Source: a virus (Duplodnaviria; Caudoviricetes). Taken from it: a stretch of 51,249 bases of DNA. Below the pieces are notes generated by a model that was given only the letters and a program-made list of their open reading frames with translations, was not told where the DNA came from and made no database searches. Where the stretch lies: IMG/VR virus record IMGVR_UViG_3300033145_001039, positions 1-51,249 of that record. One strand, given 5' to 3'. Position 1 is the stretch's first letter. Each line of letters opens with the position of its first letter. A program made the translations under genes and the position numbers. Positions 12,904-49,662 of the stretch are shown one piece after another.

Positions 12904-13505
12904 TCGATCACCGGTAGCTTGAACTGATCCAGACGCCGCAAGAGATCTGCCATATCGTCTTCAGGCGATACAAATACAGCGGACATCTCCCCTACCGTGA
13001 TCCTTTCGGCGTTCTTGTCCTCTCGGTACCGCTGGTCAATCCTGAGCAGCCATCGACAGGCAATCTCCAGCACTATCTCCTTCAGCTCAGACGGAATGGG
13101 GATGTGATCCCCGGAATCGTCAGAGTATCCGCCGACATACGTGATGGATATAGCCTTCGGATCGCGCTCAAATGGCGCCCGGCTCTCTAAGTCACGCAAC
13201 CGAGTTCCCTCTATGTAGATGTAGAACGGATAGATATAGAAGTCATCATTCTCGGCAAGCGCGACGCCGTTATAGGTTAAAGATGAAACGGACACGATGG
13301 GGGGACGAGAGATGCCGATGACCACCCCCCCATCGTGTTCTTCGGTTACCTCTGCTTCATCAAAGGAGCGGTGGCAATAAGATTCGGCAAATGCCTTGGC
13401 TCTATCCAGAAGCTCAGACACATCGAGCCCATAGGAGGTTGCCCCATCAGTCAAGGCAATCCCCGTACGAGCCTCTACGTCACTAGCTGTAGGCCATGAC
13501 ATCAC
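12900..13505 (-). CDS. Head-tail adaptor/connector protein
   Basis: A.AFAESYCHRSF...PPIVSVSSL...ITYVGGY...IPSELKEIVL pattern. Confidence 0.8.
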   Translation of the reverse strand: MMSWPTASDVEARTGIALTDGATSYGLDVSELLDRAKAFAESYCHRSFDEAEVTEEHDGGVVIGISRPPIVSVSSLTYNGVALAENDDFYIYPFYIYIEGTRLRDLESRAPFERDPKAISITYVGGYSDDSGDHIPIPSELKEIVLEIACRWLLRIDQRYREDKNAERITVGEMSAVFVSPEDDMADLLRRLDQFKLPVIE

Positions 13506-13522
13506 CGACCGCCCCCTCTAGC

Positions 13523-19524: not shown

Positions 19525-19534
19525 GACCGCCCCC

Positions 19535-19620
19535 AAAAATTAAGGCCCCCGCATAGCGAGGGCCGTGTGTCTCACGGGCTACCTTGTGCCTATTCTACCA
19601 CAATCTGCGTTACTAGTCAA
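19535..19620 (-). promoter_or_regulatory. sigma70 promoter (TTGACT-17-TGgTAGAAT) + conserved leader + terminator-like hairpin upstream of portal
   Basis: -35 at 19615-19620, -10 at 19592-19597; hairpin GGCCCTCGC-TAT-GCGGGGGCC then TTAATTTTT. Confidence 0.7.
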
Positions 19621-20285
19621 GCCAATTGTCTGTCTTCAAGACGAGAAATTATCTCGGCCATATAAAGAAGTGCCCTTCCATGTCCCTTGCGATCATTTCC
19701 AAAACCGCATAGATCAGCTATTCTTTCAATCTGGCTCATAATGGTTTCTTTCTCGACTTCATCTCTTACGACAAAACTTAAGGTAATGGCACTTGAAGCC
19801 GACCCTTCCTCGGCTTCCGCTGCGACCCGATCCCAGTCAAAGTCAATTAGGTCCCGGACATCATTAAGCTCCTCCATATTCCATGGCACGGTTTCCTCAA
19901 AGTCCTCTAGGCTTATCCCGCCGTCCAAGACAATCTGTAGGGCTTCGGCCTGTTTGATCGGATCTACCTCGAAGTACTCGACAACTTCGTGCGCAATGCG
20001 TATTGCCTCTTCTTGGGAGATTGGTCCATGATCGTAAGCCAGTACCTGTTTGATTCCCAGCTCTTTGAAAGCAATCAGACGATGGTTTCCATCGATCATT
20101 TCATAGCGTCCATCCTCTAATTGACGAACATTACAGTTTTTGATCTGCCCATTGCGGCGGATGTTCTCTGCCAGTTTTCTAGCCTTATCTTCGTCATCTT
20201 GCTTAAAGTTCCAGGGAGCTGGTACTATCTTGTCAATCGAGATCATCTTCAGTTGCGCCGGGAGCTTGGCTTTAGTACTAGACAT
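19617..20285 (-). CDS. ParB/Srx-like N-terminal domain protein
   Basis: IDKIVPAPWNF...LAENIRRNG...YEMIDGNHRL motif. Confidence 0.85.
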   Translation of the reverse strand: MSSTKAKLPAQLKMISIDKIVPAPWNFKQDDEDKARKLAENIRRNGQIKNCNVRQLEDGRYEMIDGNHRLIAFKELGIKQVLAYDHGPISQEEAIRIAHEVVEYFEVDPIKQAEALQIVLDGGISLEDFEETVPWNMEELNDVRDLIDFDWDRVAAEAEEGSASSAITLSFVVRDEVEKETIMSQIERIADLCGFGNDRKGHGRALLYMAEIISRLEDRQLA

Positions 20286-21072
20286 TCCAGTTCACCCCCC
20301 TCTTTTCCCAAAGTCTATTCAAGAACTCTTCCATCTTTAGTAGCTCGCGTACATTGTGGGCATTTCGTTCTAAGTACGCACTACGTTTGATAATACCAGG
20401 CCCGATTCTATTGATTGCTCTTTTGGGGTTTTTCCGTGGAAGAGCAGTCGATATCGTGCCATTCCGAAAACCAAGAACCATGCCAAATCTACCCCCAGCA
20501 TTCCACGTTGTAGCATCGCAGGAGTACGCGGGTACCCACTTAAGAACAGAACAAGAGGAGACTCCAAACAAGTGAATCCTGGTCCCGCGCTCAAAAGCAT
20601 ACTGAATAGGACGTGCGATCCGAGCCAAAAGCCCCTTCCAAGAGTTCTTTTGCTTGCCCACTATTCCACCAATAGCTACATAGTTAAAGTCTCTACAGTA
20701 GTCTTCAAATATTGACCAAGCCCAGCCAGGATGCCATACAGGGACGGGCTTCAGGCCAGCTTTTAGAAGACGATATAGATTAGCATTGGATTCATCAGGA
20801 GAATCAGTATCCAGATTTGCATATGCACTTAGATAAGGCCCTAGCTGGTGCAAGCAGTCTATATAGACCCCAATGTCTATCTGGGTCCCTGACACGCGGG
20901 CACTGTATCCTCCCGAATCCATGAAGATGTCCAATTGAGACGCATCGCGCATAATATTGGCTACTGTCTTGGAATCAGAATAGCAAAAGGAAAAAAGAAG
21001 CCGCGTAACGCCGCATGAACGCAGCAGCTTATAGAATTTACTCGACTCGCCACCCGCAAAGTACAATTTCAT
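20278..21072 (-). CDS. dpdA: TGT-fold transglycosylase, putative DpdA-like 7-deazaguanine DNA insertase
   Basis: MDSGGYS, YANLD, PVPVWH, YVAIGG, IHLFG, SCDATTW motifs; adjacent to the que genes. Confidence 0.75.
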   Translation of the reverse strand: MKLYFAGGESSKFYKLLRSCGVTRLLFSFCYSDSKTVANIMRDASQLDIFMDSGGYSARVSGTQIDIGVYIDCLHQLGPYLSAYANLDTDSPDESNANLYRLLKAGLKPVPVWHPGWAWSIFEDYCRDFNYVAIGGIVGKQKNSWKGLLARIARPIQYAFERGTRIHLFGVSSCSVLKWVPAYSCDATTWNAGGRFGMVLGFRNGTISTALPRKNPKRAINRIGPGIIKRSAYLERNAHNVRELLKMEEFLNRLWEKRGVNWNV

Positions 21073-21992
21073 TGATCACCGTTTCGCGCCACAAATGCAG
21101 CATTGATTCCGCTCTTGTTAAGAGCATTTATAATGTCCTTGGCTGCCACTATAGATATTTCTTCATGGGCTAGCGCATAGCCCCTACAATGGACACGTAC
21201 AGCCTCTCTTATCTTTTTATTAATCAGAGGGTCATTAAGATTCGGCGGGGGAGATAGCCACTTTTCATCCTGGGCAATGCCATTGTTTACAAAGGCAACC
21301 CACCGCCTAAAGCATGCCTGACATGCTCCACAATGGATGCTTTTCCCTTCCTGACACGATAGCGTGTCCAATATGTTTGCTTCGTTGACATTTTTCAGCC
21401 ACCATCTGACTATATCGGTCTTGCTCCATCCCGAAAAAGGAAAGTATACGCGCACAGGATAGGGCCTAGTCCCCAGCACAGCATTCAAAGCTCCCCAGAA
21501 CTGCCAGCTCTTATCACCACCACGGGGCTTGATCTCTCCCTCGGTAGCGGATAGCCAGATCTCCCCACCCTTATCAAGGAGCTCGGAAGCAGCCATTATG
21601 AAAAGCAAGTTACGGCCAGGAATCATATAGCCGTAACGCTCGCGATTATGAGTGAAATCTGAAAAATCCAAGATCAATGGGTCGATCCCCAGCTTTTCAA
21701 GCGCCCTCAATTCAAGATCCTCATAACCGGTCCGAATCTTGCAATATACTGGTATTGCCTCACCCCGGGCTCGTCTCTTCGCCATGAAGTAGGCTGCCGA
21801 GCTATCTAGCCCCCCAGACACAAGAACCACAATATCATGCGCCGGCTGGCCAACTAAAAACTCTACTTCCTGCACCATGTGGGGATGATAGAAAGCTTCT
21901 TGAAGAAGGGTGCCCCAGATTCCAGGAGGCAAAGTTACGGGCTTCCCTTCGGCCACATCCCTCATTAGCTTTAAGATATCTTTAGCGGTCAT
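21069..21992 (-). CDS. queC: 7-cyano-7-deazaguanine synthase
   Basis: SGGLDS PP-loop, IPGRNLLF, K.DIV, SC...HCGACQACFRR. Confidence 0.88.
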   Translation of the reverse strand: MTAKDILKLMRDVAEGKPVTLPPGIWGTLLQEAFYHPHMVQEVEFLVGQPAHDIVVLVSGGLDSSAAYFMAKRRARGEAIPVYCKIRTGYEDLELRALEKLGIDPLILDFSDFTHNRERYGYMIPGRNLLFIMAASELLDKGGEIWLSATEGEIKPRGGDKSWQFWGALNAVLGTRPYPVRVYFPFSGWSKTDIVRWWLKNVNEANILDTLSCQEGKSIHCGACQACFRRWVAFVNNGIAQDEKWLSPPPNLNDPLINKKIREAVRVHCRGYALAHEEISIVAAKDIINALNKSGINAAFVARNGDQ

Positions 21993-22573
21993 TTCATCCC
22001 CATCAGTCGCAAGAACTCCTCACGAGTTGCGGGGTTGTCTTTGAACGCCCCCCTTAGACAAGATGTCACCATCTCGCCTTGAGACTTGGCACCCCGAAAT
22101 CTCATACAGGAATGAACCGCCCTTATAACGACCGCTACGCCATGAGGGGCAAGATTAGGATTGTCAATAGCATCGGCGATTTCTTGGGTAAGCCTTTCCT
22201 GTAGCTGTAGCCTAGCAGCTAACGCATGAACTACCCGTGGGATCTTTGACAATCCCACTACCTTTCCTTCGCTAGGGATATAGGCCACTGACGCAGTTCC
22301 GAAGAAAGGCATCAGATGGTGTTCACATAGAGAGACGAAAGGAATATCCTTGACTACTACCATCTCATCGTATTCGGTACGAAAGATCTTTCCCAGAATC
22401 TCTTTTGGATCTGCGCCGTAGCCCCAGGTCATTTCTTTGAGAGCCTTAACTACCCGGTAAGGAGTCTCGATGAGCCCTTCCCGGGAGACATCCTCGCCCA
22501 GATACTGCAGAAGCCCACTTACGAATTCCTGGGCCTGCTTTGTCGTTATTCCGACCGCCCCTTGATTAGACAC
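21989..22573 (-). CDS. folE: GTP cyclohydrolase I
   Basis: REGLIETPYRV, SLCEHHLMPF, GLSKIPR, LQLQERLT, HSCMRFRG. Confidence 0.96.
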   Translation of the reverse strand: MSNQGAVGITTKQAQEFVSGLLQYLGEDVSREGLIETPYRVVKALKEMTWGYGADPKEILGKIFRTEYDEMVVVKDIPFVSLCEHHLMPFFGTASVAYIPSEGKVVGLSKIPRVVHALAARLQLQERLTQEIADAIDNPNLAPHGVAVVIRAVHSCMRFRGAKSQGEMVTSCLRGAFKDNPATREEFLRLMGMK

Positions 22574-23207
22574 CTCGTGCCTCCTCTCCCCAGATCACTT
22601 TGTGCCACTGAATTTGTATGGCGTAGTTATAGGCAATACACCATTGGGCTAACTCTTTAAAAGGCATCGCTCCCCATACGGGACTAAAGATCGGAAGCGC
22701 CTCAGTGGGGTAGCGCTGTAGAAGTTCGTGAGCATGATCGCATTCCTTTATGGACGAAACCACGAATTTCACATCATCTATTGGCCTCAACTTGACCAGA
22801 TTTTCTAGGCACATCTCATCTTGCATTCCCGAGGCCTCGGTCTTGATGTCCATGACATAGCGTGCACGAAGGGGAACGAGGGCTATACTGCCATTGGTTT
22901 CTATCTCAATGGCTTCTTTCTGAAAGCCCATTCGGTTGAGTTCCATAACCAAAGCCCATAATCCATCCAGTTGGATCATGGGCTCCCCCCCAGTAATACA
23001 GACGCGACTGGCACCGCTTTCGGAAACTCTTTCAACAATCTCCTTTATGGTTAGCTCTTTGCCTCCCCCAAGATCCTGGGCATACTTTGTGTCGCAGTAC
23101 AAGCAGCGAAGATTGCATCCCTGGAAACGCACAAAGAAAGTGGGTCGGCCCGCATAGCGACCCTCTCCTTGAATAGAATAGAACAGTTCATTTATCTTAA
23201 CCTTCAT
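22566..23207 (-). CDS. queE: 7-carboxy-7-deazaguanine synthase (radical SAM)
   Basis: ELFYSIQGEG, GCNLRCLYCDT, ITGGEP, IETNG, QWHK. Confidence 0.95.
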   Translation of the reverse strand: MKVKINELFYSIQGEGRYAGRPTFFVRFQGCNLRCLYCDTKYAQDLGGGKELTIKEIVERVSESGASRVCITGGEPMIQLDGLWALVMELNRMGFQKEAIEIETNGSIALVPLRARYVMDIKTEASGMQDEMCLENLVKLRPIDDVKFVVSSIKECDHAHELLQRYPTEALPIFSPVWGAMPFKELAQWCIAYNYAIQIQWHKVIWGEEARGV

Positions 23208-23541
23208 ATATGACTCCTTGATTGGGCGTCTCCCATAGCTCTATGCGCTCCAAGGCCACAGAATCGGGCAACTTCCATTCAATCTCTCTCCACAGATGGA
23301 AAGCTATTTCTTCGGCCGTGGGATTAGCTATTAAATCATTCAATAGCCTATGGTCAGGGAGGGTACTATTAACAATTGCCTTTATCTCATTGAAGTCCAA
23401 TAGCATGCCGGTTTTCTCGTCGATGTCTCCAGACAGGTAGACTACAAGCTCCCACCTATGCCCATGTAGATTTCCACAGGGACCGTAATAGCCGGGAAGG
23501 TAATGTGCAGCATCAAAACTTGTTCTGTAAACCAGCCCCAC
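23197..23541 (-). CDS. queD: 6-carboxytetrahydropterin synthase
   Basis: FDAAHYL, CGNLHGH, DHRLLN, PTAE, LWET; start may be GTG 23541 or ATG 23565. Confidence 0.95.
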   Translation of the reverse strand: MGLVYRTSFDAAHYLPGYYGPCGNLHGHRWELVVYLSGDIDEKTGMLLDFNEIKAIVNSTLPDHRLLNDLIANPTAEEIAFHLWREIEWKLPDSVALERIELWETPNQGVIYEG

Positions 23542-23580
23542 TCTTCGACCGCCCCGCATAGCCATGATGCCTCCTCTCAC

Positions 23581-23669
23581 AAACAAAGGCCCCCGCCCTT
23601 TCGGACAGGGGCCTGTGTCTCAGGCTATACCTGCTGTCATATTATAGCATTCAAGATGCCCTGGGGCAA
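23581..23669 (-). promoter_or_regulatory. sigma70 promoter (TTGCCC-17-TGcTATAAT) + conserved leader + terminator-like hairpin upstream of queD
   Basis: -35 at 23664-23669, -10 at 23641-23646; hairpin AGGCCCCTGTCC-GAAA-GGGCGGGGGCCT then TTGTTT. Confidence 0.7.
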
Positions 23670-23741
23670 CTGCGCAAGGTCATTCACCCGCATTATTTAA
23701 CAGAAGACCTCTTAGGTTAAAAAAATCCCCTCAAAAAGGAC

Positions 23742-23770
23742 TTGACACATGGACCGAAACATGTTATAAT
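23742..23770 (+). promoter_or_regulatory. Consensus sigma70 promoter TTGACA-17-TGtTATAAT for the plus-strand gene block
   Basis: Perfect -35 and extended -10, A-tract upstream, strong RBS AAGGAGG before 23827. Confidence 0.9.
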
Positions 23771-27841: not shown

Positions 27842-28788
27842 AATACTCCGTTGAAGTAGGCCAGCGCAATATCCCGAGTCTTTCGTTCCACCAACTTGCG
27901 GGCAGCCCGAAAGTCAAACTTGCCAACTCTGTGCTTTTTTACAAAGCCCCAAAGCTCCTCGTTGAACACATCATGCCATGCCCGCCCTAGGATCTCGGGC
28001 ATATTGCGCACACTCACCGAGCCCCGCTCATCACGTATCTTGTCAATGATCTTGAGCACTAGGTGCTCAGTTACACAGGCTGCGGCAAACTGAAGCTCTA
28101 CTGGCTCTTTATGCCCAGCACCGAAATGCAGTTTGTTCTTTTCCCTGAAATCAGCAGAGACCAACTTGCCCCATACCGTACGGCCATAGCAGTTTACAAA
28201 GTCATATCTCTTAGCCACTATACCTTCGCGTTCACCACCACCCAGCAGGCTAGGCTCCTGGGTCAAAGGGACAAGATCCGCCACGGTAGGATTCTCCATA
28301 ACTGCAATATGTGGCACCATTTCAATCTCGAATAAAGAGAGAACATCTTTGTATTCTTGCCAAGGAATATAACTGCCATCCCGAAGCTGCACATCGAACA
28401 CGTACAGCTTGTTCATGTACTCAATGGGATAGACAACGCTATGACGAACTAGCCACTCACCTCGCAAGATCCAATCAGGATGGGATTGGAAAAGTTCTTT
28501 GATTCCATCGTGGGCTAGCACATATTCGACAAGGCCCCTGAAACCGTTAGGAGGTTCACCGCCAATAGATATAGCCCGGTTACGTGTACAAACTAAAAGC
28601 CCAGCATCCTCATCCCATGCTACGGTGGCATTAGCTCCATCAATCTTCTCCTGTACAACTACCGTGCCATCAAGCAGGCCGTCTACTTCATCGTCGCCAA
28701 GTCGCTCGACATGTTGATAACGATATAGCCAGTCACCGTACAGCTTCCTTTGCTCTCGCAGCTTGGCCTGGAATTCCGCTGCCTTCAC
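27838..28788 (-). CDS. ATP-dependent RNA ligase (Rnl2-like nucleotidyltransferase)
   Basis: Motif I QEKIDGAN, GEW, FDV, EGIVAK, GKLV. Confidence 0.8.
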   Translation of the reverse strand: MKAAEFQAKLREQRKLYGDWLYRYQHVERLGDDEVDGLLDGTVVVQEKIDGANATVAWDEDAGLLVCTRNRAISIGGEPPNGFRGLVEYVLAHDGIKELFQSHPDWILRGEWLVRHSVVYPIEYMNKLYVFDVQLRDGSYIPWQEYKDVLSLFEIEMVPHIAVMENPTVADLVPLTQEPSLLGGGEREGIVAKRYDFVNCYGRTVWGKLVSADFREKNKLHFGAGHKEPVELQFAAACVTEHLVLKIIDKIRDERGSVSVRNMPEILGRAWHDVFNEELWGFVKKHRVGKFDFRAARKLVERKTRDIALAYFNGVL

Positions 28789-28984
28789 GACCGCCCCCCT
28801 TGTTATATCCGACCGCTGGAACTAGGTGTAGCCTCTGCTCGCCTCCGTCAACTAGCACTGCTCCTTCAATAGTAATCCTGCGAATGCGCCCCTGATGCAT
28901 ATGCACCACTAGCTGCCCTGTATATCCCAGATTGGCTAGCTCTTGTAACTGACGATCACACAGCTCTATATCGGCAAGCGACAC
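28733..28984 (-). CDS. Small hypothetical protein (DUF2292-like)
   Basis: GYTGQLVVHMHQGRIRRI pattern. Confidence 0.45.
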   Translation of the reverse strand: MSLADIELCDRQLQELANLGYTGQLVVHMHQGRIRRITIEGAVLVDGGEQRLHLVPAVGYNKGGGREGSGIPGQAARAKEAVR

Positions 28985-30365: not shown

Positions 30366-30408
30366 ACCGACCGCCCCCTCTGGTCACATTCTACACAATC
30401 TGGGCCAA

Positions 30409-36610: not shown

Positions 36611-37491
36611 GATAAAGTCACCCCCATTTTTTGAACTATCACTTCTCGTAGCCCCTCAGCCAACTTTCGTATTTCCCATTGAGCACTTGGAGATGTCCTT
36701 AGTTCAATAAAATGTTTCCACATCTCCAAGCTCATGCTCGCCACAAGGTTAGTCTTAGCCCCCAAGGGATAAATGAACCGGGCATCTTCTTTAGGCACTC
36801 CAGCTTCTATTAACCTGGTATATGCTTTTTCCGCATAAGCCACCGCAGCGAAGAATGTGCCCGTATGATGTGAATTATTTATACTAGGAGGAACTTTGAC
36901 CCCATTCTTTGTGGCATAGCAGTACCGTTGTGATTCTTGCATATAGCTAGCGATCCTGTGACGCACTATCTGATTAGCCGCAATCCGGGAAATCCGCCGG
37001 AAGTGTACTGTAACATAACTGTGGCGTGGCAGAAATCTAGCGGGCACAGGGGGCTTGTAAGCATCCATGAGATATACATTGCCGTCTACCACAGGAGCTG
37101 GCTCGGGATTTCCTTCTAGTAAAGCTTTCCATGGCCCGGGGAGTAAGGACACCATATCGCCTACTAAGTCACTACGCCGTTGTAGTAACTCATATATGGT
37201 CCTTGCATTCAAAGTGAGATAGACAGCACCACGATCCAATGATGCAGCCCATCCGTGACTATCTGCCATTATCTCCACCACTTCTTCTCGAACTTGCCGG
37301 AACCCGTTAGGGCTAACATAGAAGGTGGCTCTGGCAAACTCTAGAGATGAAAGGTGTCCAAGCTCAATTAGTTTGCTCACTAGCCGGGCGTTATTCTGGG
37401 GAGATGAAACCGCAAACGAATTATGGGAAACTCTAGCACAAGCAGCTATTAACCCCACCGGGTTCTCCGTGCAATCGATCAGCTCAAACAT
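36607..37491 (-). CDS. thyX: Flavin-dependent thymidylate synthase
   Basis: GHLSSLE, QIVRHRIASYMQESQRY, EDARFIYP, AQWEIR; start refined to ATG 37491. Confidence 0.92.
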   Translation of the reverse strand: MFELIDCTENPVGLIAACARVSHNSFAVSSPQNNARLVSKLIELGHLSSLEFARATFYVSPNGFRQVREEVVEIMADSHGWAASLDRGAVYLTLNARTIYELLQRRSDLVGDMVSLLPGPWKALLEGNPEPAPVVDGNVYLMDAYKPPVPARFLPRHSYVTVHFRRISRIAANQIVRHRIASYMQESQRYCYATKNGVKVPPSINNSHHTGTFFAAVAYAEKAYTRLIEAGVPKEDARFIYPLGAKTNLVASMSLEMWKHFIELRTSPSAQWEIRKLAEGLREVIVQKMGVTLS

Positions 37492-37506
37492 GCCGTCCCC
37501 CTTTGG

Positions 37507-37569
37507 GTGGTGGGGCGGTCGAAAAAGGAGGTGATAGGCAGAATCGCCATGAACCGACCGCCCCATCAC
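37507..37569. promoter_or_regulatory. Inverted repeat of the GGGGCGGTCG motif enclosing a perfect SD/anti-SD sequence, in the thyX leader
   Basis: TGGGGCGGTCG(37511-37521) AAAAAGGAGGTGAT...CGACCGCCCCA(37555-37565). Confidence 0.6.
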
Positions 37570-37577
37570 GCATAATT

Positions 37578-38958: not shown

Positions 38959-39578
38959 CGACCGCCCCTTTCATTGAGCTTTGTTTGCCAATTTACTGCC
39001 CGTATTTCCCCGACCTCCTTTATGCTCCAGTTTGGCCCCGTGATAGGGATAATCCTCGCATCCGGGGCCAAGAACCGCCGCATAATCCGGGGATCGTACC
39101 TGCGCTGGAACTCATCGTCCTCACCTCCTACCACTAAGTTAGTTGTCACGATTAGGGGTTTCTGATCTCTCCACCTGCGGTCCACCAATACCTCAATCGC
39201 CTCTAGTGCGTACTCAGATGGCTTCTCTACTCCCAAGTCATCTATTACAACCATGGTAGCATCTATGGCCCGCTTAAGTGGATCTTCTCCTCCATGCTGG
39301 ATTGCCCACCTGCGTGCTAAGGCAAGCTCGGCCATAGGCCAATAGACATACCGCCCATGTGGCCATTTAGCATCAAGCTCGTTCAGTAAAGCCGTAACTA
39401 GTCTAGTCTTACCCCGTCCCGTCTTGCCCCACAGAAGGAGAGACCATGATTCACCCGCCACTATCTTTTGACAATATTCAAGGGCTTCGGCAATTCCGTC
39501 GTGTACTTCTATGGCCTCGAAACCACCGTGAAACCGCCGCCCTAGGGGTGCCCCCAAGATCACGTCCCCCTCCCGCAA
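38955..39578 (-). CDS. DnaC/IstB-like AAA+ helicase loader
   Basis: GKTGRGKT Walker A, VVIDDLG Walker B, IVTTNL. Confidence 0.9.
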   Translation of the reverse strand: MREGDVILGAPLGRRFHGGFEAIEVHDGIAEALEYCQKIVAGESWSLLLWGKTGRGKTRLVTALLNELDAKWPHGRYVYWPMAELALARRWAIQHGGEDPLKRAIDATMVVIDDLGVEKPSEYALEAIEVLVDRRWRDQKPLIVTTNLVVGGEDDEFQRRYDPRIMRRFLAPDARIIPITGPNWSIKEVGEIRAVNWQTKLNERGGR

Positions 39579-40435
39579 AGCCTTGCTACCGCCTGGTTAA
39601 GGTCCTCCTCTATGCGGGCAGCATTTGATAGCCGTTGACCGTTGCCGTTCCTCTTGGAAGGCTTTCCCTTTTCCCTCCACTCTAAGGCCCTCTCATAGTA
39701 TTCATCGTAATGCTCTTTACTGAACAAAGTCGCAGGCCGCAAATAGACCCGCATTTTATCATCATCCCCCCATTCTTGGGCGAAGTAGTCAACGATAAGC
39801 TTGAGATGTTCCTTGGGCTTTCCTTCCTTCAACCTCGCCCGGATATACTTCATCTGCCCGCTGTCGGGGGGGAACCGCCGGCTACATTGCTTGTTTAGAT
39901 ACTCCCGGATTTCTTGAGCATCTTCCTCTAGCTGGGGTCGCCCGCCGGGGCGACACGTAGTGTTTTTTTCTATAGTCTTTACTTTTTCTACGTTTTTGAC
40001 TTCTTCTATATGTACCCTGGAATCCCTACCTAGGGAATCCCTACTTACGGAATCCAGACTTGGGCCTTCCTGTCTCGTTTTCTCCCGCTTTGGAGCCGAA
40101 AGTAATGTGATCTTGAGGCCGATGCGGTGTCCTTTCTCATCTCGTTCTTCCTCAACTTCTATGAGGCCCAACTGTTTTAATTTTTCTCTGGCCTTGACTG
40201 CGGTTTCGTAGGTGAGCCCCGAGTAAGTACAGATAGCCCGCATCCCCCCGCGAAGCTCCGCAGTTCTAATGTCGCTCTGTCTCCCATGGTCTGACACTAT
40301 CTCGGTCAAGGCAAGATAAAATGAACGCATAGCAACCAACATATGCCCTGTATAGTGGTCTCGCATAAGACGCAAGGCTTCTTTCTCTTGCCAACACCAT
40401 GTTGCTACCCGCAGATCACGTACTTTTACATCCAT
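39560..40435 (-). CDS. Phage replication initiator (O-like)
   Basis: N-terminal winged HTH, low-complexity linker with iterons, C-terminal YLN...IRARLKEG...YLRPATLF; upstream of DnaC-like gene. Confidence 0.85.
   Translation of the reverse strand: MDVKVRDLRVATWCWQEKEALRLMRDHYTGHMLVAMRSFYLALTEIVSDHGRQSDIRTAELRGGMRAICTYSGLTYETAVKAREKLKQLGLIEVEEERDEKGHRIGLKITLLSAPKREKTRQEGPSLDSVSRDSLGRDSRVHIEEVKNVEKVKTIEKNTTCRPGGRPQLEEDAQEIREYLNKQCSRRFPPDSGQMKYIRARLKEGKPKEHLKLIVDYFAQEWGDDDKMRVYLRPATLFSKEHYDEYYERALEWREKGKPSKRNGNGQRLSNAARIEEDLNQAVARLCGRGT
39961..40063. promoter_or_regulatory. Putative replication origin: three 15-bp iterons plus T-rich tract inside the initiator gene
   Basis: GGAATCCCTACCTAG GGAATCCCTACTTAC GGAATCCAGACTTGG (40019-40063) next to T-rich 39961-40010. 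Confidence 0.7.
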
Positions 40436-40731
40436 GCCGACCGCCCCCTGTTTTGTTTTCCCGCACCATCCCCTTTCCAGCGCCAGACGCCAATAGGTCT
40501 ATGGTGACACTCCCTTCTCTTGCTCTTCTTATACCCTACGCACTCCCAGCCCGGTTCTTTGAAGACCGCTCCCAATGCCCGCAGGTCTACTGTAACAGGA
40601 AGAACCCCCAGACGTTCCCGTACATCATCAATTGTGACCGTGCCTTGTTCCCGAGCAATCTCCTTGGCTATGATGCGGCCAGCGTTGATGAGCCCCGCCC
40701 GGTCTTGTTCGAATAGGCCCATTACATGCAC
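40426..40731 (-). CDS. Hypothetical phage protein (wHTH-like)
   Basis: GTVTIDDVRE...ALGAVFK...GYKKS.R..CH.RPI.VW. Confidence 0.65.
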   Translation of the reverse strand: MHVMGLFEQDRAGLINAGRIIAKEIAREQGTVTIDDVRERLGVLPVTVDLRALGAVFKEPGWECVGYKKSKRRECHHRPIGVWRWKGDGAGKQNRGRSAWM

Positions 40732-40938
40732 TATCTACCCCCTTTCTTGACAGCGGCCCCCGGGGGCAGTACAATCACAATGCCGCCGGGGCGTCGCCGC
40801 CCAGTGTCGCATAAGCTCCCCGCCGGCCTGGAGCCGCCAACTCCAGTCCGTTCCGATTCCCCGCCTCCCTGAATTGGGAGGCCGTTTGCCATCTGCATTA
40901 TAACATGCTGCACGGTACAAATTCAACTCCCGCTGGTC

Positions 40939-42247: not shown

Positions 42248-43002
42248 TCCACACCTCCTGCGATAAGCTCCTCGGTGTGAGGCTTACCCTTTTCGGTTTT
42301 CCTTGTTTGCGCGGATTTGGGCTCAAACAATGCCCGCAGCGCCTTGTAGCTCATTGGACACGATCCGGCCTTGTCCAGGATCGGATTCCGGCTCCCAGCC
42401 TCGATGCCCTCATAAGGCCGGAATACGATCTTGCGCTCACCCTTTTCCGTGGTGCAGAACAGGACGTTATCCACTACGGCGAGGGCGAACCTGGCCAAGC
42501 GCCCCGGCAGGTCTATCGTGTGGCCTACCGTGACTTCGCCGATCACTGCCCACCTGGAATGCGCAATGACAAGTACATTGACAGGCAGTTGAGAGAATGC
42601 CTTGATGAGTTCGATTACCCGATTCCGGGCCGCCCCCCAGTCTGCGCCGTAAGGAGCTTGCCCAAGTTGGGTAATACCCATCTCTTCGCAGACCTCACGC
42701 TCGATCCAGTCATTCACCACGTCTATGGTGTCAAGTGCGATCGTCTGATAGGGCAGTTCCCCCTTGTCAACCATGGCCCTTAGCTGCGCGTATACCTCGC
42801 GCAACTCGCCCAGGTTTTTGATCTCAGCCACGTAAGCGCCCTCTACGTAACGGGTGCCGCCTTCCATATCCAAGATCAGGCACTCAGGCCATTGGGCTGC
42901 GAAGGAGCTTTTGCCGATTTTCGGTGCGCCGAATACGAGCCAAGTGCCCCTCTCGGGAAAGCCAGTATCGGCCTTCTTCTTCTCCTTTGGCAGCACTACC
43001 AT
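42244..43002 (-). CDS. AAA_24/Sak4-like recombination ATPase
   Basis: GAPKIGKS Walker A, LDMEGG, IALDTID, VIAHS. Confidence 0.85.
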   Translation of the reverse strand: MVVLPKEKKKADTGFPERGTWLVFGAPKIGKSSFAAQWPECLILDMEGGTRYVEGAYVAEIKNLGELREVYAQLRAMVDKGELPYQTIALDTIDVVNDWIEREVCEEMGITQLGQAPYGADWGAARNRVIELIKAFSQLPVNVLVIAHSRWAVIGEVTVGHTIDLPGRLARFALAVVDNVLFCTTEKGERKIVFRPYEGIEAGSRNPILDKAGSCPMSYKALRALFEPKSAQTRKTEKGKPHTEELIAGGVE

Positions 43003-43922
43003 GTCACCACCTCCTGCAATTCGCTGTGCTTTCGGGTCTGTCTAAATCCCATCTTCCGGGCTAACTTTGAATCATTGATGCAAAGCTCCCGGTATACACA
43101 CCCGTGATAGCGGCATGCGTCGGGGTTTCTCCATGTCGCTCCCTTTCCTATGGCTCTCGCAATTTCAATCAGTTCTTTGCCGATCTGATCGAGGTCATCA
43201 CCAGACTTTGCTATCGCCTCTTTTTGGTAGTACCACTCGGGCCGAGGCTGGGTGCCATTGAAGGGAGCCGTCAGCCCAACTTCAACGGACAACCGCTTAA
43301 AGTAGGCATCAGAATCCTCATTCTTTCTGATACGGATCTGTGGCTTGCGGATGAGGTAATAGATGATCCCGATGGGTTTGAGCCCCAGTTGCCATTGTGC
43401 CCACATGTAGTAGGCCATCTGGTCATCTATCTGGAGCCTGTCTGTGTCTAGCTCTCGGGAACCGGTCTTCCAATCCCACAGCCAAGCATTGCCATGCGGA
43501 TCTTTTGTAATGAGGTCGATCTTCCCGGCCAGGGAAAACTTAGGAGACTTGCGGCCAGTAGCAGTCTTGAGGGGCACGATAAACTCTTTCTCGACTGCTA
43601 CCACCTCGTGCTCCATAGCCCGGACTGGATCGCGGGCCAGGAGCCCTCCAACGAGCACTTCGGCTATGCCCATGTTGTGCTCAGCCTCATCGTCTCCCCA
43701 TGGCGAAGTATTGGAAGTCAGGTGCTCCCGCATGGCTTCGAACGGGTCTTGCCCCCCGTAGTGGGCTCCCAGCCCTACATGAACCAAGGAGCCGAAATAG
43801 GGGGCGGGCTTGGGTTTCAGCGGTTCAAGCCCTTCGTGGTACTTGAACCACCACTTACGCGGGCACGCTTTCCACGTGCCGATTTCCGAACTAGTCAGAA
43901 CTATGCGCTCCGACCGCCCCAT
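42996..43922 (-). CDS. PD-(D/E)XK nuclease, Cas4/RecB-like exonuclease
   Basis: CPRKWW...FGSLVH...VEKEF...GKIDL...DWKT...Q..YY...C...C..RELC; start refined to ATG 43922 (RBS AAGGAGG). Confidence 0.88.
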   Translation of the reverse strand: MGRSERIVLTSSEIGTWKACPRKWWFKYHEGLEPLKPKPAPYFGSLVHVGLGAHYGGQDPFEAMREHLTSNTSPWGDDEAEHNMGIAEVLVGGLLARDPVRAMEHEVVAVEKEFIVPLKTATGRKSPKFSLAGKIDLITKDPHGNAWLWDWKTGSRELDTDRLQIDDQMAYYMWAQWQLGLKPIGIIYYLIRKPQIRIRKNEDSDAYFKRLSVEVGLTAPFNGTQPRPEWYYQKEAIAKSGDDLDQIGKELIEIARAIGKGATWRNPDACRYHGCVYRELCINDSKLARKMGFRQTRKHSELQEVVTW

Positions 43923-43936
43923 GTCTCCTCCTTGTG

Positions 43937-44224
43937 TTATAATGGGGGGCCGCTTTCCGACCGCCCCAAAGTCTGAAACGCGGCTGGCCGCCCCGACCCC
44001 TTGGGGCGGCCACTTCTCTTTAGAGCAAGCTTGCCGCCCACGATGTCTATGCACCATGACCAAGGCGATTGACCATAGCACTTATCCAAGAGGATTTCGT
44101 GGGAGGGATACAGTTTTAGAAGACGAACTTGCACAATCCATGGCCCATCATCGAATAGCACGAGGGCCTTGCCGTGCTCTATCTGGGTAAGAGTCCCAAT
44201 GCGGGTACCATAGCGTACTAGCAC
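43937..44224 (-). CDS. Small protein with SH3/KOW-like beta pattern at the N-terminus
   Basis: GTG after GGGGGCGGTCGGA; VRYGTRIGTLTQIEHGKALVLFDDGPWIVQV. Confidence 0.45.
   Translation of the reverse strand: MLVRYGTRIGTLTQIEHGKALVLFDDGPWIVQVRLLKLYPSHEILLDKCYGQSPWSWCIDIVGGKLALKRSGRPKGSGRPAAFQTLGRSESGPPL
43949..44021 (+). ncRNA. Predicted ~70-nt sRNA carrying CCGACCGCCCC, the complement of the genome-wide start-site motif
   Basis: Extended -10 TGtTATAAT at 43935-43943 on +; seed at 43957-43967; hairpin TGGCCGCCCC-N8-GGGGCGGCCA then CTTCTCTTT. Confidence 0.55.
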
Positions 44225-44237
44225 TCCGACCGCCCCC

Positions 44238-44348
44238 TTGCCTGGATTCTCTGTTCGTGCTACAATACTTCTGGGAGTCATGCGAGGCTCCTTTCGAGGG
44301 GGGCACATTAGACTAGCGGCTCTGTGCCCCTCTCAGTTTTTTTGTTTA
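44238..44348 (+). ncRNA. Predicted OOP-like antisense sRNA unit (promoter + ~70-nt transcript + intrinsic terminator)
   Basis: TTGCCT(44238)-17-TACAAT(44261) with TG extension; GAGGGGGGCACA...TGTGCCCCTCTC then AGTTTTTTTGTTT. Confidence 0.6.
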
Positions 44349-44542
44349 TCTGCGATCTTTATTCCCAACACGCGCTCTAGGCGCATCCTAAACAGCCGCA
44401 ATGGCTTGGTATGTCCCTTTTCCCAGTTATAGATGGTCATGGGAGAACAGCCAAGCTTCGCGGCCAGTTCATCGCGACTCATTCCGAGCCGCTCCCTAGC
44501 AGCTCTGATCTGCATCCCCACCTCCTTTCTCTCTGTCATCAT
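44333..44542 (-). CDS. Cro-like XRE HTH regulator (leaderless)
   Basis: IRAARERLGMSRDELAAKLGCSPMTIYNWEKG..KP. Confidence 0.9.
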   Translation of the reverse strand: MMTERKEVGMQIRAARERLGMSRDELAAKLGCSPMTIYNWEKGHTKPLRLFRMRLERVLGIKIADKQKN

Positions 44543-44548
44543 CGAACT

Positions 44549-44577
44549 ATTATATAAAGTTTTGATGCAAAAGTCAA
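44549..44577 (-). promoter_or_regulatory. sigma70 promoter TTGACT-17-TATAAT for the cro-like/early operon, with an overlapping imperfect palindrome
   Basis: -35 at 44572-44577, -10 at 44549-44554; AGTTTTGATGCAAAAGT dyad; ATG 7 nt downstream. Confidence 0.8.
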
Positions 44578-44727
44578 GTCTTGGGGGAAAGCCTGTCTAG
44601 AACAGAGGCTTGCACTTTTGGCGTTGCGGGAAGAAGCAGTATCGCATGTACGGGCATCGGTATCAGCCAATTATATTGTGATTGTTTGCGCGTGACAAGG
44701 GCAACGGACCAATGTCCCGCATACTGG

Positions 44728-45135: not shown

Positions 45136-45143
45136 ACCCTATT

Positions 45144-46325
45144 GTGACTATTCCCCGCAGATAAAGCAAGGGGCTTCTAGGGCCTTGCAGCCCAGGCTCT
45201 GTAGTCCCAGAGCCAATATGTTTAATGCCGCATTATGGTCACGATCCAAACGAAGACCACAATGAGGACATTCATGAATACGAACTGAGAGATCCTTGGG
45301 AACGATAGCTCCGCACTGGGAGCATCTCTGGGTAGTCCCGCGTGGATCAACTTCGATTACACGACGACCAGCCTCTTCCGCTTTGTACATCGTGAACTGC
45401 CGAAGCTGTCGCCACGCAGCATCACCGATGCTCTTGTTCAAGCTGTGCCAGTTCCCATTTTGCATCTTTTGAATCTCCAGTTTTTCAAAAGCCAGCAATT
45501 GAAATTCATTTACCAGACGACGGCTTAGCTTGTGAGCAAAGTCGCGGCGCTTGTTTGTAATGCGCTCATGGATGCGGGCCACTACCTTGCGCCGCTTCTT
45601 GTATTCAGGGGTTCCTTTTTTAGCTTGGCTGAACTTGCGTTGGGCTTTAGCCAATGCCTTCTCTTCCCGGCGGAAGAACCGTGGATTCTCAATCTGCTCG
45701 CCTGTCGAAAGAGTGGCAAAGCTCTCCAAGCCAACATCTATCCCAACCGCGTTAGGAACAGGGGGCAATCTTTTCGGTTTGACTTCTACTGAGAAGCAAG
45801 CGAACCACTTGCCGGTAGCAGTGCGCCGAATAGTCAGGGTCTTGATTTGTCCTTCGATGGGCCGGTGAAGCCTGATTTTAATGTCCCCGATCTTAGAAAG
45901 ACGCAGCTTTCCCTCCTCAGTGAGTTTGAATCCCGACTGGGGATAGGTGAAGCTATCATATCGCCCCTTTCCTTTGAAACGGGGATAACCGGCTTTCCCG
46001 TTCTTGGCTTTAAGCCTGCGAAAGAATCCTTGAAAGGCCAAGTCAACACGAGTACAAACCTCTTGAAGCACCTGAGAATAGACATCATTGAGCTGGGGAT
46101 ATTCCTCTTTAAGTTGTGGTAACATCTTAATAGTATCATAGCGTGCAAGGGATTCCCGCCGCTCAGACCAGGCTTCGCGCCTTCTAGCTAATATTTCATT
46201 ATAGACAAACCGACAGGAGTCCAAAGTCTGCTCCAGTCGAGCACGCTGGCCTTTCGTAGGAAATAACCGATATTTAAATGTTCTCCTCACAGTTATATTA
46301 TATGACATTTATGCGGCGGCGTCAA
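45144..46325 (-). mobile_element. tnpB-only (IS1341-like) element without tnpA
   Basis: Right-end-like GAAGCCCCTTGC-TTTATCT-GCGGGGAATAGTCAC ending TCAC at 45144; left side TTGACG-17-TATAAT; left boundary uncertain. Confidence 0.7.
45148..46290 (-). CDS. tnpB: RNA-guided endonuclease TnpB (IS200/IS605 family)
   Basis: FKYRLFPT, GYPRFK, GIDVG (RuvC-I), AFEKL (RuvC-II), CSQC/CPHC, DRDHNAALNI (RuvC-III); probable leaderless GTG at 46290. Confidence 0.95.
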   Translation of the reverse strand: MRRTFKYRLFPTKGQRARLEQTLDSCRFVYNEILARRREAWSERRESLARYDTIKMLPQLKEEYPQLNDVYSQVLQEVCTRVDLAFQGFFRRLKAKNGKAGYPRFKGKGRYDSFTYPQSGFKLTEEGKLRLSKIGDIKIRLHRPIEGQIKTLTIRRTATGKWFACFSVEVKPKRLPPVPNAVGIDVGLESFATLSTGEQIENPRFFRREEKALAKAQRKFSQAKKGTPEYKKRRKVVARIHERITNKRRDFAHKLSRRLVNEFQLLAFEKLEIQKMQNGNWHSLNKSIGDAAWRQLRQFTMYKAEEAGRRVIEVDPRGTTQRCSQCGAIVPKDLSVRIHECPHCGLRLDRDHNAALNILALGLQSLGCKALEAPCFICGE

Positions 46326-46345
46326 GTACACAAAGAAGGACATGA

Positions 46346-46588
46346 TCACTTTTCGACATCCCGCGTAGTACCCCCTAGAGCAGTTTGAATCAACAAAAGA
46401 TTGCTTTTGATCGCGGCCTCAATCTCCTCCCGGGCCGCATCCCGAATCCCCTCATATAGCTGGGCTTTCACCGCCGTCAATAAATCTTCACCCTGCTCAT
46501 CCAGATAATCACGAAATGCCCGAATGACTAGTTCTGTGACAATGCGGCCAAGCTCCTCGTAAAGATCATCAAGGGTATCATCGTCCAT
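46346..46588 (-). CDS. Acidic hypothetical protein
   Basis: RBS GAGGAG; MDDDTLDD... Confidence 0.6.
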   Translation of the reverse strand: MDDDTLDDLYEELGRIVTELVIRAFRDYLDEQGEDLLTAVKAQLYEGIRDAAREEIEAAIKSNLLLIQTALGGTTRDVEK

Positions 46589-47956: not shown

Positions 47957-48036
47957 CCGCCGACCGCCCCTTCTCTGCCCACCCCTGCCCCGCCGGGTAC
48001 CCGACCGCCCCACCAGACCCGGCATCCCATCTTGCG

Positions 48037-48285: not shown

Positions 48286-48722
48286 CTCAGTTCAAATCTT
48301 AGAATGGTGTCGATATACCACCATCCCGCTCCATATATCAGACCCCAGGATACAGACCCGTTGAAGATCCTGAATCTGACACCGGCCAGGCCATACCATG
48401 GCGAGAAATACATGGCCGGATTAGTAATGTAGACTCCCACGCCCAGCCCTAAAGTGGGCTGCACGGCCACTTGGGAACTGATATTGATAGCAGGGAAGTA
48501 GCCCTGAGCATCCACAAGCCACGCCCCATCAAGCCCGAAATCCGCTGGGAAAACCTTGCTCGCCTGCACCCCAAAGTAGATGTCATCCCACCCAAAGGAG
48601 TAGCAGGGATACGCGGCCGGCACGCCCGGGTCTACAAACTGCCGAAAACCGATGAACGGTCCGGCAAATGCGACCGCCCCGAATAGTGCCGCCAGAATGA
48701 CCGCCCCAAATGCCTTTCTCAT
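48279..48722 (-). CDS. Exported beta-strand-rich protein, possible outer-membrane beta-barrel
   Basis: Signal peptide MRKAFGAVILAALFGAVAFA; alternating aromatic strands; C-terminal LRFELRW. Confidence 0.6.
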   Translation of the reverse strand: MRKAFGAVILAALFGAVAFAGPFIGFRQFVDPGVPAAYPCYSFGWDDIYFGVQASKVFPADFGLDGAWLVDAQGYFPAINISSQVAVQPTLGLGVGVYITNPAMYFSPWYGLAGVRFRIFNGSVSWGLIYGAGWWYIDTILRFELRW

Positions 48723-49015
48723 CCTTCGCCTCCTTTTTTCTTTTTTCCCGCAGGAGGATCTGGATACTCGATCCATCCCTCCTCAGGATTGTCAGATTGA
48801 AGATTCACCCTCCACTGACCGAATGCCCCGCCGGCCTTGGCCCTACGGGCCGCCCGCTCCATTGCCTCTTGCCACTTCTTTTCTAGTTCTTGCTTGCGCC
48901 GCTGCAACGATTCATACCTGGCCTGTAATAACTGTTCCTCTGCACCAATAGCACGTGCCTCCTGGTTTAGTGCCTTGAGCCTCCAGAAGTCCTCTTTGGC
49001 CAGCTTTGCTCTCAT
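48719..49015 (-). CDS. Coiled-coil hypothetical protein
   Basis: RBS AAGGAGG; MRAKLAKED... Confidence 0.65.
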   Translation of the reverse strand: MRAKLAKEDFWRLKALNQEARAIGAEEQLLQARYESLQRRKQELEKKWQEAMERAARRAKAGGAFGQWRVNLQSDNPEEGWIEYPDPPAGKKKKGGEG

Positions 49016-49037
49016 GCTGCCTCCTTGCGGGCTCAAG

Positions 49038-49126
49038 CAAAAAGCCCCCAGTCTTTCGACTGGGGGCCTTCGTCTAAGGCTCTGCCCGTCCAGACTCATT
49101 GTAGCACAAAGTCGCGCAAGGGGCAA
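49038..49126 (-). promoter_or_regulatory. sigma70 promoter (TTGCCC-17-TGcTACAAT) + conserved leader + terminator-like hairpin
   Basis: -35 at 49121-49126, -10 at 49098-49103; GGCCCCCAGTC-GAAA-GACTGGGGGCT then TTTTG. Confidence 0.7.
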
Positions 49127-49176
49127 GTCTTCTATGCGAAAGTAGCCCCCAGGATAATAATGCGATATAATATTGG

Positions 49177-49662
49177 GTGATTATGATGCGCATAGACCTG
49201 GGAATTGGGTTTTGGATTACGATCGTCCCGCTAGTGATAGTTGCTTTGACTGGCTCTCAGATCTATGTAGAAAGAATTGAAATTCAAACCGTATCCACAC
49301 ATCTGGGCTGGGCAATCAATATCAATCCTGTGTTTGTAGCAGAGCTATCCTTCCCCTTTCAGGCATGGGCTCTCCAGTGCGGATACCTTGTGATTATTTC
49401 AAAGGACATCTATACAATTGGCGTCTCTAGATGGGGAGATGGTTTTCCAAAGAATGTTCTAGAGCACGAACTTATACATGTACAACAATTCCAGGCCATG
49501 GGGCCTTTTCTCTGCTGTCCCGGCATAGAGCACATAATCCCAATAGAGGGATGCAGTTATCTGTACGAAGCCCGAAACATTGCAGCCTGTAATAGAACTA
49601 TGTGGCACCCTGGTTCTGGTGTGTGTATCTTTCCGTTTGTAAGTATAAGGCCCGATTATTGA
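49177..49662 (+). CDS. Membrane-anchored HEXXH zinc-metallopeptidase-like protein
   Basis: N-terminal TM; LEHELIHVQQ...EA motif; lone plus-strand gene with upstream TATAAT. Confidence 0.6.
   Translation: MIMMRIDLGIGFWITIVPLVIVALTGSQIYVERIEIQTVSTHLGWAININPVFVAELSFPFQAWALQCGYLVIISKDIYTIGVSRWGDGFPKNVLEHELIHVQQFQAMGPFLCCPGIEHIIPIEGCSYLYEARNIAACNRTMWHPGSGVCIFPFVSIRPDY

Follow-up and report, generated by a model that had tools for sequence, protein, structure and literature searches.

Can a phage control genes in every module of its genome through one short word placed at their start codons and, if so, what reads that word? The question is raised by the virus record IMGVR_UViG_3300033145_001039 (Duplodnaviria; Caudoviricetes), a complete record of 51,249 bp with direct terminal repeats at its ends, which was analysed over its whole length and is referred to below as the window. 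At 43911-44021 the original prediction had placed a 'master' small RNA (sRNA) on the plus strand, the seed of which would pair with a motif at many phage start codons. This motif, GGGGCGGTCG as a 10-mer and GGGGCGGTCG(G) as an 11-mer, does mark initiation regions throughout the genome, and the locus holds what looks like a small transcription unit. The reading that we favour, tentatively and short of calling it probable, is that the motif is of the type of the start-associated sequence (SAS) of certain mycobacteriophages and is read by some other factor, while the RNA would be an antisense RNA comparable to lambda OOP and P22 sar that acts in cis only.

The number, position, orientation and conservation of the motif were established directly on the DNA. 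The window contains 17 exact copies of GGGGCGGTCG, against a mean of 0.13 and a maximum of 1 in 100 dinucleotide-preserving shuffles, and 16 of the 17 lie on the minus strand, which is the sense of the mRNAs; the reversed pattern of GGGGCGGTCG, used as a control, has no copy on either strand. A genome scan with the 11-mer at up to two mismatches returned 36 matches where 17.7 were expected, about 19 of which are the 17 exact 10-mers together with 32752 (one mismatch) and 48697 (one mismatch in the core), and it revealed no excess of degenerate copies beyond the exact ones. A single relative, G001, is represented by its whole genome (50,326 bp, terminal repeats included); it contains 15 copies, 14 of them in one orientation. 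All 14 sense copies that can be aligned are exact in G001, with 0 changes in 140 motif positions against 27 in the 700 positions of the 25-nt flanks; at copy 47970 (copies are named by their first base on the minus strand) the four bases between motif and ATG have changed from GCGG to ACGC and the 10-mer has not. The two window copies that have no G001 counterpart lie within a 7-deazaguanine module that is replaced there. Such all-or-none exactness fits recognition by base pairing, or a recent spread of the word, better than it fits a typical protein site.

The placement of the copies ties the motif to translation initiation, as had been predicted. In 10 of the 16 sense instances the first base of the motif is followed 9-14 nt later (+9 to +14) by a start codon with at least 50 aa of open frame behind it, a placement found at 9.9% of minus-strand positions (binomial, 4e-7), and for six of the 16 this start is the first possible one after an in-frame stop just before or inside the motif (7e-8). 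We count 13 sense copies, out of 16, between about -14 and +22 relative to a plausible start. Most of the genes that had been named as carrying the motif indeed do so in their initiation regions, all on the minus strand: the portal gene (19524-19533, GTG at +9), the head-tail adaptor gene (13505-13515, GTG at +10 beside an ATG at +13), a BNR/GH43 tail-fibre-like gene (2851-2861, its sole possible start, ATG 2850, following directly), the replication initiator gene (40437-40447, ATG at +12), the RNA ligase gene (28788-28797, sole possible start GTG at +9), the HNH endonuclease gene, whose ATG is abutted by the motif (38959-38968), and queD (23546-23555), where the copy stands either after an ATG at -10 or 4 nt before a GTG at +14. 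The holin-like gene drops out of that list, since its exact copy, 48680, is internal and begins 42 nt after the ATG; it shares the 5' part of this membrane open reading frame (ORF) with a one-mismatch copy at 48707-48698 (the two spanning 48671-48707). Further sense copies precede a 65-aa ORF (30367-30377, sole possible start TTG at +12), an 87-aa ORF (ATG 47956, preceded by copy 47970 of the tandem pair at 47960-48011) and the small gene P0001 (44226-44236, ending 1 nt before GTG 44224). The exceptions to the start association are thus 48680, the orphan 48011, which lies 41 nt upstream of 47970, and 43967, in the last codons of P0001. In most linked genes the motif fills the stop-to-start gap of about 15-25 nt and is essentially the intergenic spacer. 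Five of the ten linked starts are GTG or TTG only, and a sixth is the GTG of the adaptor gene (13515) with its neighbouring ATG.

The G-run at the 5' end of the motif lies 5-10 nt 5' of the start, at Shine-Dalgarno (SD) distance, in 10 of the 16 copies. The motif is nevertheless not merely a ribosome-binding site, because some copies follow a canonical SD and start codon. In three genes, those for the exonuclease and GTP cyclohydrolase I and the thyX leader ORF, it lies 3' of the start codon, and in the first two the start that precedes it has an SD of its own of the GGAGG type. The copy in the GTP cyclohydrolase I gene (22552-22561) begins 12 nt past the GTG, with the canonical SD upstream, and that in the gene for the PD-(D/E)XK exonuclease (RecB/Cas4-like; 42996-43922, minus strand; PF12705 on all 13 listed homologues) overlaps the ATG at 43922-43920 downstream of the canonical SD AAGGAGGAG, the copy at 43911-43920 being read as ATG-GGG-CGG-TCG-GAG or MGRSE. 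Exonuclease homologues 44-50% identical start with MKRIV.. or MAIANV.. and are devoid of the GRSE, that is, the four extra codons are missing, and four metagenome loci that encode 41-47% identical homologues have no motif. A peptide motif was ruled out, as three reading frames are used, and so was a Chi-like site, which would leave the phasing to start codons unexplained.

A precedent is found in the Cluster K mycobacteriophages. As described by Pope et al. (2011; PMC3203893), their SAS is a 13-bp sequence with 11-19 copies that share one orientation and typically stand 3-7 bp ahead of a start; four phages keep a single reversed copy, conservation goes beyond the bases that pair with rRNA, and the factor involved was left as 'RNA or protein'. 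Papers of 2024-2025 still call the role of SAS unknown. The motif described here is likewise a short, asymmetric, exact repeat of more than ten copies, far above chance and in near-single orientation, with copies within a few nt of starts, one reversed copy away from a gene start, apparent conservation in excess of what pairing with rRNA would account for, and a distribution specific to one phage lineage. It differs in that its sequence is GGGGCGGTCG(G) where SAS reads GGGATAGGAGCCC, with a 5' G-run but no AGGAG core; its distance from the start is 0-4 nt in place of 3-7, it follows the start codon in three genes and occupies short gaps where SAS occupies long intergenic ones, and it is also found at structural genes (portal, adaptor, tail-fibre-like), whereas SAS is confined to the non-structural arm. 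The phage, moreover, is unrelated, uncultivated and derived from sediment and vent metagenomes. Because the consensus and the AGGAG core differ, we regard the motif as an analogue of SAS, not as a member by sequence.

Turning to the predicted RNA, the elements proposed for the plus strand can all be read off the DNA: an extended -10, TGTTATAAT, at 43935-43943, the seed CCGACCGCCCC at 43957-43967, which is the complement of a minus-strand motif copy, the hairpin TGGCCGCCCCGACCCCTTGGGGCGGCCA at 43985-44012 and a pyrimidine tail, CTTCTCTTTA, reaching about 44022, with motif copies flanking the locus at 43911 and 44227. A GGGGGG discriminator follows the -10, and transcription is predicted to start at about 43949-43951. 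The word TGNTATAAT has four genomic copies where 1.25 would be expected, a number attained in 3 of 100 shuffles. Its other three copies are sensibly placed for promoters, with a TTGACA or TTGAAT box at -35 or with a leader: at 23762 it belongs to a perfect TTGACA-17-TGTTATAAT promoter facing the plus-strand gene cluster, at 23641 it points in the opposite direction in front of queD, and at 40897 it has a TTGAAT box and a leader. Extended -10 promoters thus look functional in this genome, which lends credit to the copy at 43935. The hairpin, a candidate intrinsic terminator about 42 nt downstream of the -10, has 10 perfect pairs, or 12 on the plus-strand RNA with one G-U, and is one of three perfect stems of at least 9 bp in the genome (mean of 1.07 in 30 block shuffles). 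Both its tail, with T at 6 of 10 positions on the plus strand against 3 of 10 on the minus strand, and its predicted energy, -24.6 kcal/mol on the plus strand against -23.3 on the minus strand (a G-U replaces an A-C mismatch), favour the plus-strand orientation. A looser terminator scan gives 2.1 terminator-like sites per 2.2 kb in shuffles and is therefore no evidence when taken alone; the chance of a -10 within 100 nt upstream of a right-tailed hairpin is about 0.01, by rough post hoc arithmetic of our own on 4 x 3 elements. The 73-nt plus-strand RNA is predicted to fold with -36 kcal/mol (z = -5.2), with seven seed bases out of 11 left unpaired, including a contiguous run of six in the 5' loop. 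As judged from the sequence, a compact promoter-plus-terminator unit on the plus strand is plausible, and we lean slightly towards the view that 43935-44022 gives rise to an RNA of about 70 nt. The suggestion that the hairpin arms are single-base variants of the motif did not hold, the arm GGGGCGGCCAG differing from it at two positions.

The locus had been described as lying in an otherwise non-coding stretch of the plus strand. Promoter and terminator are plausible there, but the opposite strand codes throughout for the tail of P0001, a protein of 95 aa (43937-44224, minus strand, from GTG 44224, with an alternative in-frame ATG at 44281). The TAA stop codon of P0001 falls inside the plus-strand -10; the hairpin encodes GRPKGSGRP, and the seed, which on the minus strand is the motif copy at 43957-43967 (GGGGCGGTCGG), encodes L-G-R-S-E in the C-terminal tail. 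The sole homologue of P0001 among 1.8 billion representative proteins is P0086, 68-69% identical and known as a protein only; it begins at the motif-adjacent start corresponding to GTG 44224 (MLVRHG..) and keeps GRPtGaGRPAAsFQTLGRSE (pattern GRPxGxGRPAA..FQTLGRSE). At one metagenome locus, L099, both differences beside the hairpin are synonymous. GRP codons are self-complementary when shifted by one base, and a GRP..GRP repeat therefore makes an inverted repeat. The selected feature could be the protein tail or the RNA structure, as arms that are kept with a changed loop fit both, and since seed and hairpin lie within conserved codons, coding constraint may explain part of the anatomy. The perfect complementarity of seed and motif, though exact, follows automatically and has no independent weight, because the seed is the opposite strand of a motif copy that points the same way as 15 others; the anti-motif would be found in any plus-strand RNA transcribed over any one of the 16 sense copies.

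A second unit is found next to the first. A plus-strand promoter, TTGCCT-17-TACAAT with a TG (TGcTACAAT), at 44238-44266 begins directly after the motif copy at 44226-44236 and is followed by a strong intrinsic terminator at 44296-44345, with a 12-pair stem (44296-44334) and then T7. Together they would form a second antisense unit of about 70 nt between the cro-like gene and P0001, antisense to the AAGGAG and ATG at 44281. As GAAAGGAG follows the stem on the minus strand, it is predicted to terminate plus-strand transcripts only; G001 retains it, with a single change in the loop and with T6, next to a cro-like 3' half that has diverged strongly. In terms of recognisable sequence elements this unit (44238-44345) is better defined than that at 43935-44022. 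The cro-like gene, which encodes an HTH_3 (helix–turn–helix) protein (44333-44542, minus strand), is the first of the early operon, which two near-consensus sigma-70 promoters at 44549-44698 (minus strand; TTGACT-17-TATAAT and TTGTCA-17-TATAAT) appear to drive, and plus-strand transcription just downstream of it is likely on the strength of these elements. In line with the original prediction, which noted no CI-type repressor divergent from the cro-like gene, no integrase and no CI-type or divergent repressor was found among 60 ORFs scanned (not every ORF).

This arrangement resembles that of lambda OOP and P22 sar. Both are, according to PMC12197685, RNAs of about 70 nt with a promoter and an intrinsic terminator of their own, directed against an early operon near cro/cII-type genes and fully complementary to the opposing mRNA, features that the plus-strand units described here share as far as sequence alone reveals them. 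The differences are that there is no sequence or Rfam relationship (Rfam gave 0 matches at gathering thresholds over the whole window), that two tandem units flank one small gene, and that one of them includes a word of which the genome has 16 further copies.

According to the reading that we favour, GGGGCGGTCG(G) would be a start-associated sequence: a word specific to one lineage that stands on the sense strand in about 13 initiation regions, in all modules, acts as an operator on the initiation region beyond a plain ribosome-binding site and is read by some factor. The plus strand at 43935-44022 would yield an antisense RNA of about 70 nt, with a second beside it from 44238-44345, and both would run against the beginning of the early operon, immediately past the cro-like gene, in the manner of OOP and sar. 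The anti-motif would be present in the RNA only because transcription crosses the motif copy in the last codons of P0001, and the primary action of the RNA would be in cis, on the junction between P0001 and the exonuclease gene. The transcription of the RNA, its mode of action and the reader of the motif are what we infer from these features. T4 RegA-type repressors are examples of one factor acting at many phage mRNA initiation regions, with sites that are loosely defined and AU-rich; the word considered here is, in contrast, exact and GC-rich. Several observations weigh against our reading. Copies that are exact or absent are more typical of base pairing than of protein binding and favour an RNA acting in trans over a protein yet to be named. 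The promoter at 43935 has no match to a -35 box. The hairpin and the -10 could be by-products of coding, given the GRP codons, the TAA within the -10 and the synonymous changes at L099. Finally, the G-run of the motif is only a weak SD and may not be used as one.

The alternative that survives best is that of the original prediction, in which the RNA of about 70 nt is a trans-acting master regulator whose loop-exposed CCGACCGCCCC blocks 30S binding at about 13 mRNAs and so times or silences genes in all modules. Known phage RNAs operate along similar lines. The P4 CI RNA is a phage antisense RNA that acts on short repeated distant targets through pairing bases presented in loops, and P1 c4 and P4 CI each have about two local targets within one immunity region. 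The c4 RNA of P1, which PMC12197685 mentions, is likewise an antisense RNA directed at short repeated targets away from its own gene, with the pairing bases in loops. The case considered here differs from both in having about 13 prospective targets over all modules and in that nothing implies its release from a longer transcript by processing. No case of a phage sRNA acting on many of the phage's own initiation regions emerged from PMC12197685 or from word searches, which covered open-access text. The promoter and terminator anatomy, the predicted exposure of seven seed bases with six contiguous in a loop, and the all-or-none copies expected of a seed match are all consistent with such a regulator, as is the placement of the motif even in coding 5' ends behind a good SD. 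The stretch of about -14 to +22 in which 13 of the 16 sense copies fall is roughly the 30S footprint. Pope et al. (PMC3203893) left both an RNA and a protein open as the factor behind SAS. The complementarity, as stated above, is what any antisense transcript over a copy would have, and the seed lies within conserved codons; only one of the 16 sense copies has a plus-strand promoter of this kind. The flank of the orphan 48011, read by eye in a region not scanned for promoters or terminators, displays no AT-rich promoter-like stretch or T-run on the plus strand, and orphan copies thus seem to exist without an sRNA unit. No complementarity beyond the 11-mer is apparent in the flanks by eye (it was not quantified), and one sRNA would have many abundant late mRNAs to titrate. 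When duplex energies were computed for the plus-strand RNA against every initiation region, the GC-rich arms of the terminator contributed most; the energies gave no clean separation of targets and were discarded. We consider a trans-acting master regulator unlikely.

The motif could be read by RNA in a second way, which involves the leader of thyX. This leader (37512-37573, minus strand) contains a sense copy (37564-37555) and the sole reversed copy of the genome (37512-37521), and in the mRNA the two are predicted to pair in a 12-pair stem (-33.5 kcal/mol, z = -2.1) whose loop contains CACCUCCUUU, anti-SD-like in appearance. A leader ORF of 29 codons (ATG 37573, with the motif 9 nt past the start and an AGAGGA stretch upstream) crosses the hairpin; its end, ATGTTTGA, overlaps the probable start of thyX at 37491. 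If the fold is correct, pairing of motif and anti-motif is plausibly used at least once, in cis, and this counts in favour of an RNA reader. An anti-motif RNA, be it the plus-strand RNA of 43949-44020, the reversed thyX copy or both, may then pair at about 13 initiation regions and time or silence genes in every module, a proposal that we regard as doubtful. As a separate observation, the loop CACCUCCUUU could pair with the SD-like AAAGGGGG of thyX, and the stretch 37484-37573 (minus strand) resembles a translational switch.

It is distinctly unlikely, in our estimate, that the motif is a DNA operator comparable to the stoperators of Cluster A mycobacteriophages, at which a phage protein would bind asymmetric sites of 10-11 bp oriented with transcription and silence or pause transcription through many genes. 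Stoperators, the sites of the L5 repressor, are many asymmetric sequences of about 13 bp, oriented with transcription and located in short intergenic gaps. Pope et al. (PMC3203893) contrast them with SAS. Like stoperators, the copies described here are numerous, asymmetric and oriented. They occupy short intergenic gaps, where they overlap start and stop codons; two tandem pairs are 41 and 47 bp apart (48011/47970 and 43967/43920), one pair is inverted, and copies abut or overlap the -35 position of both plus-strand promoters. Several HTH proteins are encoded, and candidate readers would be the cro-like HTH protein, a 135-aa coiled-coil protein, a MerR-like protein and P0001 with its GRP-repeat tail. 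A DNA operator, however, would not need the tight spacing to starts seen in 10 of the 16 copies, and the degenerate variants usual for protein sites are absent, as are an integrase or recognisable immunity repressor among the ORFs scanned and a sense copy in the plus-strand cluster at 23.8-27.5 kb.

Could the word be a plain cassette for ribosome binding and translational coupling, in which a weak G-run SD and a fixed spacer have spread by recombination between gene boundaries, marking mosaic joints as well, with no dedicated factor? The SD distance of the G-run in 10 of the 16 copies, six of them with no alternative start, and the snug fit of the motif into stop-to-start gaps are in keeping with this, and the homology with G001 ends just past the motif and ATG of the replication initiator gene, at 40432. 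Yet CGGTCG is invariant and has no obvious anti-SD partner in the tail of the 16S rRNA, which counts against the cassette; copies occur downstream of strong-SD starts, as orphans and once in reverse, and the absence of any change in the motif of G001 contrasts with the 27 changes in its flanks. We therefore rate this explanation as very unlikely. Highly improbable, lastly, is a phage-specific promoter that gives leaderless or near-leaderless mRNAs and is used by a phage RNA polymerase or sigma-like factor that has escaped recognition: some 16 exact, oriented sites immediately upstream of genes do look like a T7-type promoter set, and several large proteins have no family assignment, but no RNA polymerase or sigma domain was found among the ORFs scanned, host-type sigma-70 promoters are clearly used, the variable distance of 0-4 nt to the start is unlike a fixed transcription start, and five of the ten linked starts are only GTG or TTG, poor codons for leaderless translation, with a sixth GTG beside an ATG.

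SAS has been known since 2011 only in Cluster K, and this phage would provide an independent, sequence-unrelated example in quite a different setting, so that start-associated sequences are no oddity of mycobacteriophages. The exact copies, the cis hairpin of motif and anti-motif in the thyX leader and the candidate promoter-driven antisense RNA with its anti-motif are features that point to recognition by base pairing. If the motif were read by RNA, this would amount to an sRNA regulon that a phage encodes over its own genes and would suggest a testable mechanism for SAS, still unexplained in Cluster K, where a lone reversed copy is kept as well. If the RNA acts in cis only, the locus would still be a control region with two antisense RNAs for an early gene.

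Nearly all genes of the phage are on the minus strand, the exception being the small plus-strand cluster at 23.8-27.5 kb. Structural families could be assigned to a gpA-type terminase, a portal fused to a Mu-F domain, a prohead protease, an HK97-type capsid, a head-tail adaptor and tail and tail-fibre-like proteins; other families include an RNA ligase, RusA, ThyX, an HNH endonuclease, a DnaC-like ATPase, the replication initiator and the cro-like HTH protein, and a DUF669 / AAA_24 / PD-(D/E)XK exonuclease module is encoded as well. No tRNA genes were found. A blastn search gave no close cultured relative, and the best capsid identity with a cultured phage is about 31%. Contigs at least 95% alike to the window are present in four runs, from marine sediment, sediment and hydrothermal vent metagenomes. 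Protein-pattern scans of IMG/VR, with the exonuclease and with an alignment of four sequences, led to a single relative contig, and a metagenome scan to one relative of 98% and to the four of 41-47% without the motif, which have different upstream genes. Among all close relatives with visible DNA the block 43250-44300 is almost identical, and the plus-strand unit at 43935-44022 within it shows no difference. A contig of run X1 (less than 90% alike), known from its listed positions alone, has seven listed insertions between 43922 and 43975, three of which, at 43935-43937, fall within the TG-T of the -10. On the other side of the block, at 44350-44700, the divergence from G001 amounts to 20-40% per 50 nt over the early promoter region and the cro-like 3' half, and this divergence beside an almost identical block resembles the swap of an immunity region.

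Beyond this lineage the word has a life of its own. When IMG/VR was scanned for pairs of the motif with a spacing of 20-50 nt, 89 stretches came up, only one of which belongs to this lineage, being from the contig of a known relative (judged by copy counts and contexts); of the others, the 17 whose contexts were read are tandem arrays or an unrelated two-copy element. In the latter (L022, L024, L049 and similar IMG/VR loci) unrelated contigs carry the same 10-mer twice, 27 nt apart, in a conserved non-coding context, and further contigs hold it within tandem arrays of 35-49 nt. Since unrelated contigs hold it, the 10-mer by itself does not identify this phage lineage. At 18 loci of at least 8 kb, from 80 returned, that encode capsid relatives (38-48% identity), no oriented 9-mer is repeated to a comparable extent; these loci are mostly structural regions, where the motif is sparse in the window too, and the 19th row screened (L154) is G001.

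P0001, which lies between the two antisense units, is modelled with an N-terminal small beta-barrel of the SH3/KOW/Tudor/Sm-like kind (predicted local distance difference test score of about 82, for residues 1-40 only) and a disordered basic tail that carries two GRP (AT-hook-like) repeats. It was rejected as a recognisable RNA chaperone, the barrel being generic and without a PDB match better than E = 0.18; on the basis of the model it is a candidate nucleic-acid binder.

Four further regions deserve mention. At 23641-23770 divergent promoters mark the point where minus-strand genes give way to plus-strand genes, the first of which has the same SD (AAGGAGGAGAC) as the exonuclease gene. The neighbouring 7-deazaguanine/queuosine-precursor module (19586-23581) encodes QueD/PTPS, a radical-SAM QueE-like protein, GTP cyclohydrolase I, a QueC-like protein and a ParB-N protein, and is replaced in G001 by about 4.75 kb of non-homologous DNA; its two motif copies appear to lie 3' of a canonical SD and start codon. 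An IS605-type TnpB gene (386 aa) at 45143-46353 is an insertion, G001 having just 26 nt between the flanks; its RuvC and zinc-finger motifs appear intact by eye, and its best relatives, 65-66% identical, come from very different taxa (a Caldimicrobium metagenome-assembled genome and Methanocrinis/Methanothrix). The ORF-poor stretch at 48780-49650 on the minus strand contains a 10-pair hairpin (49044-49067) followed by TTTTTG, which is likely to be a terminator or the end of a non-coding transcript.

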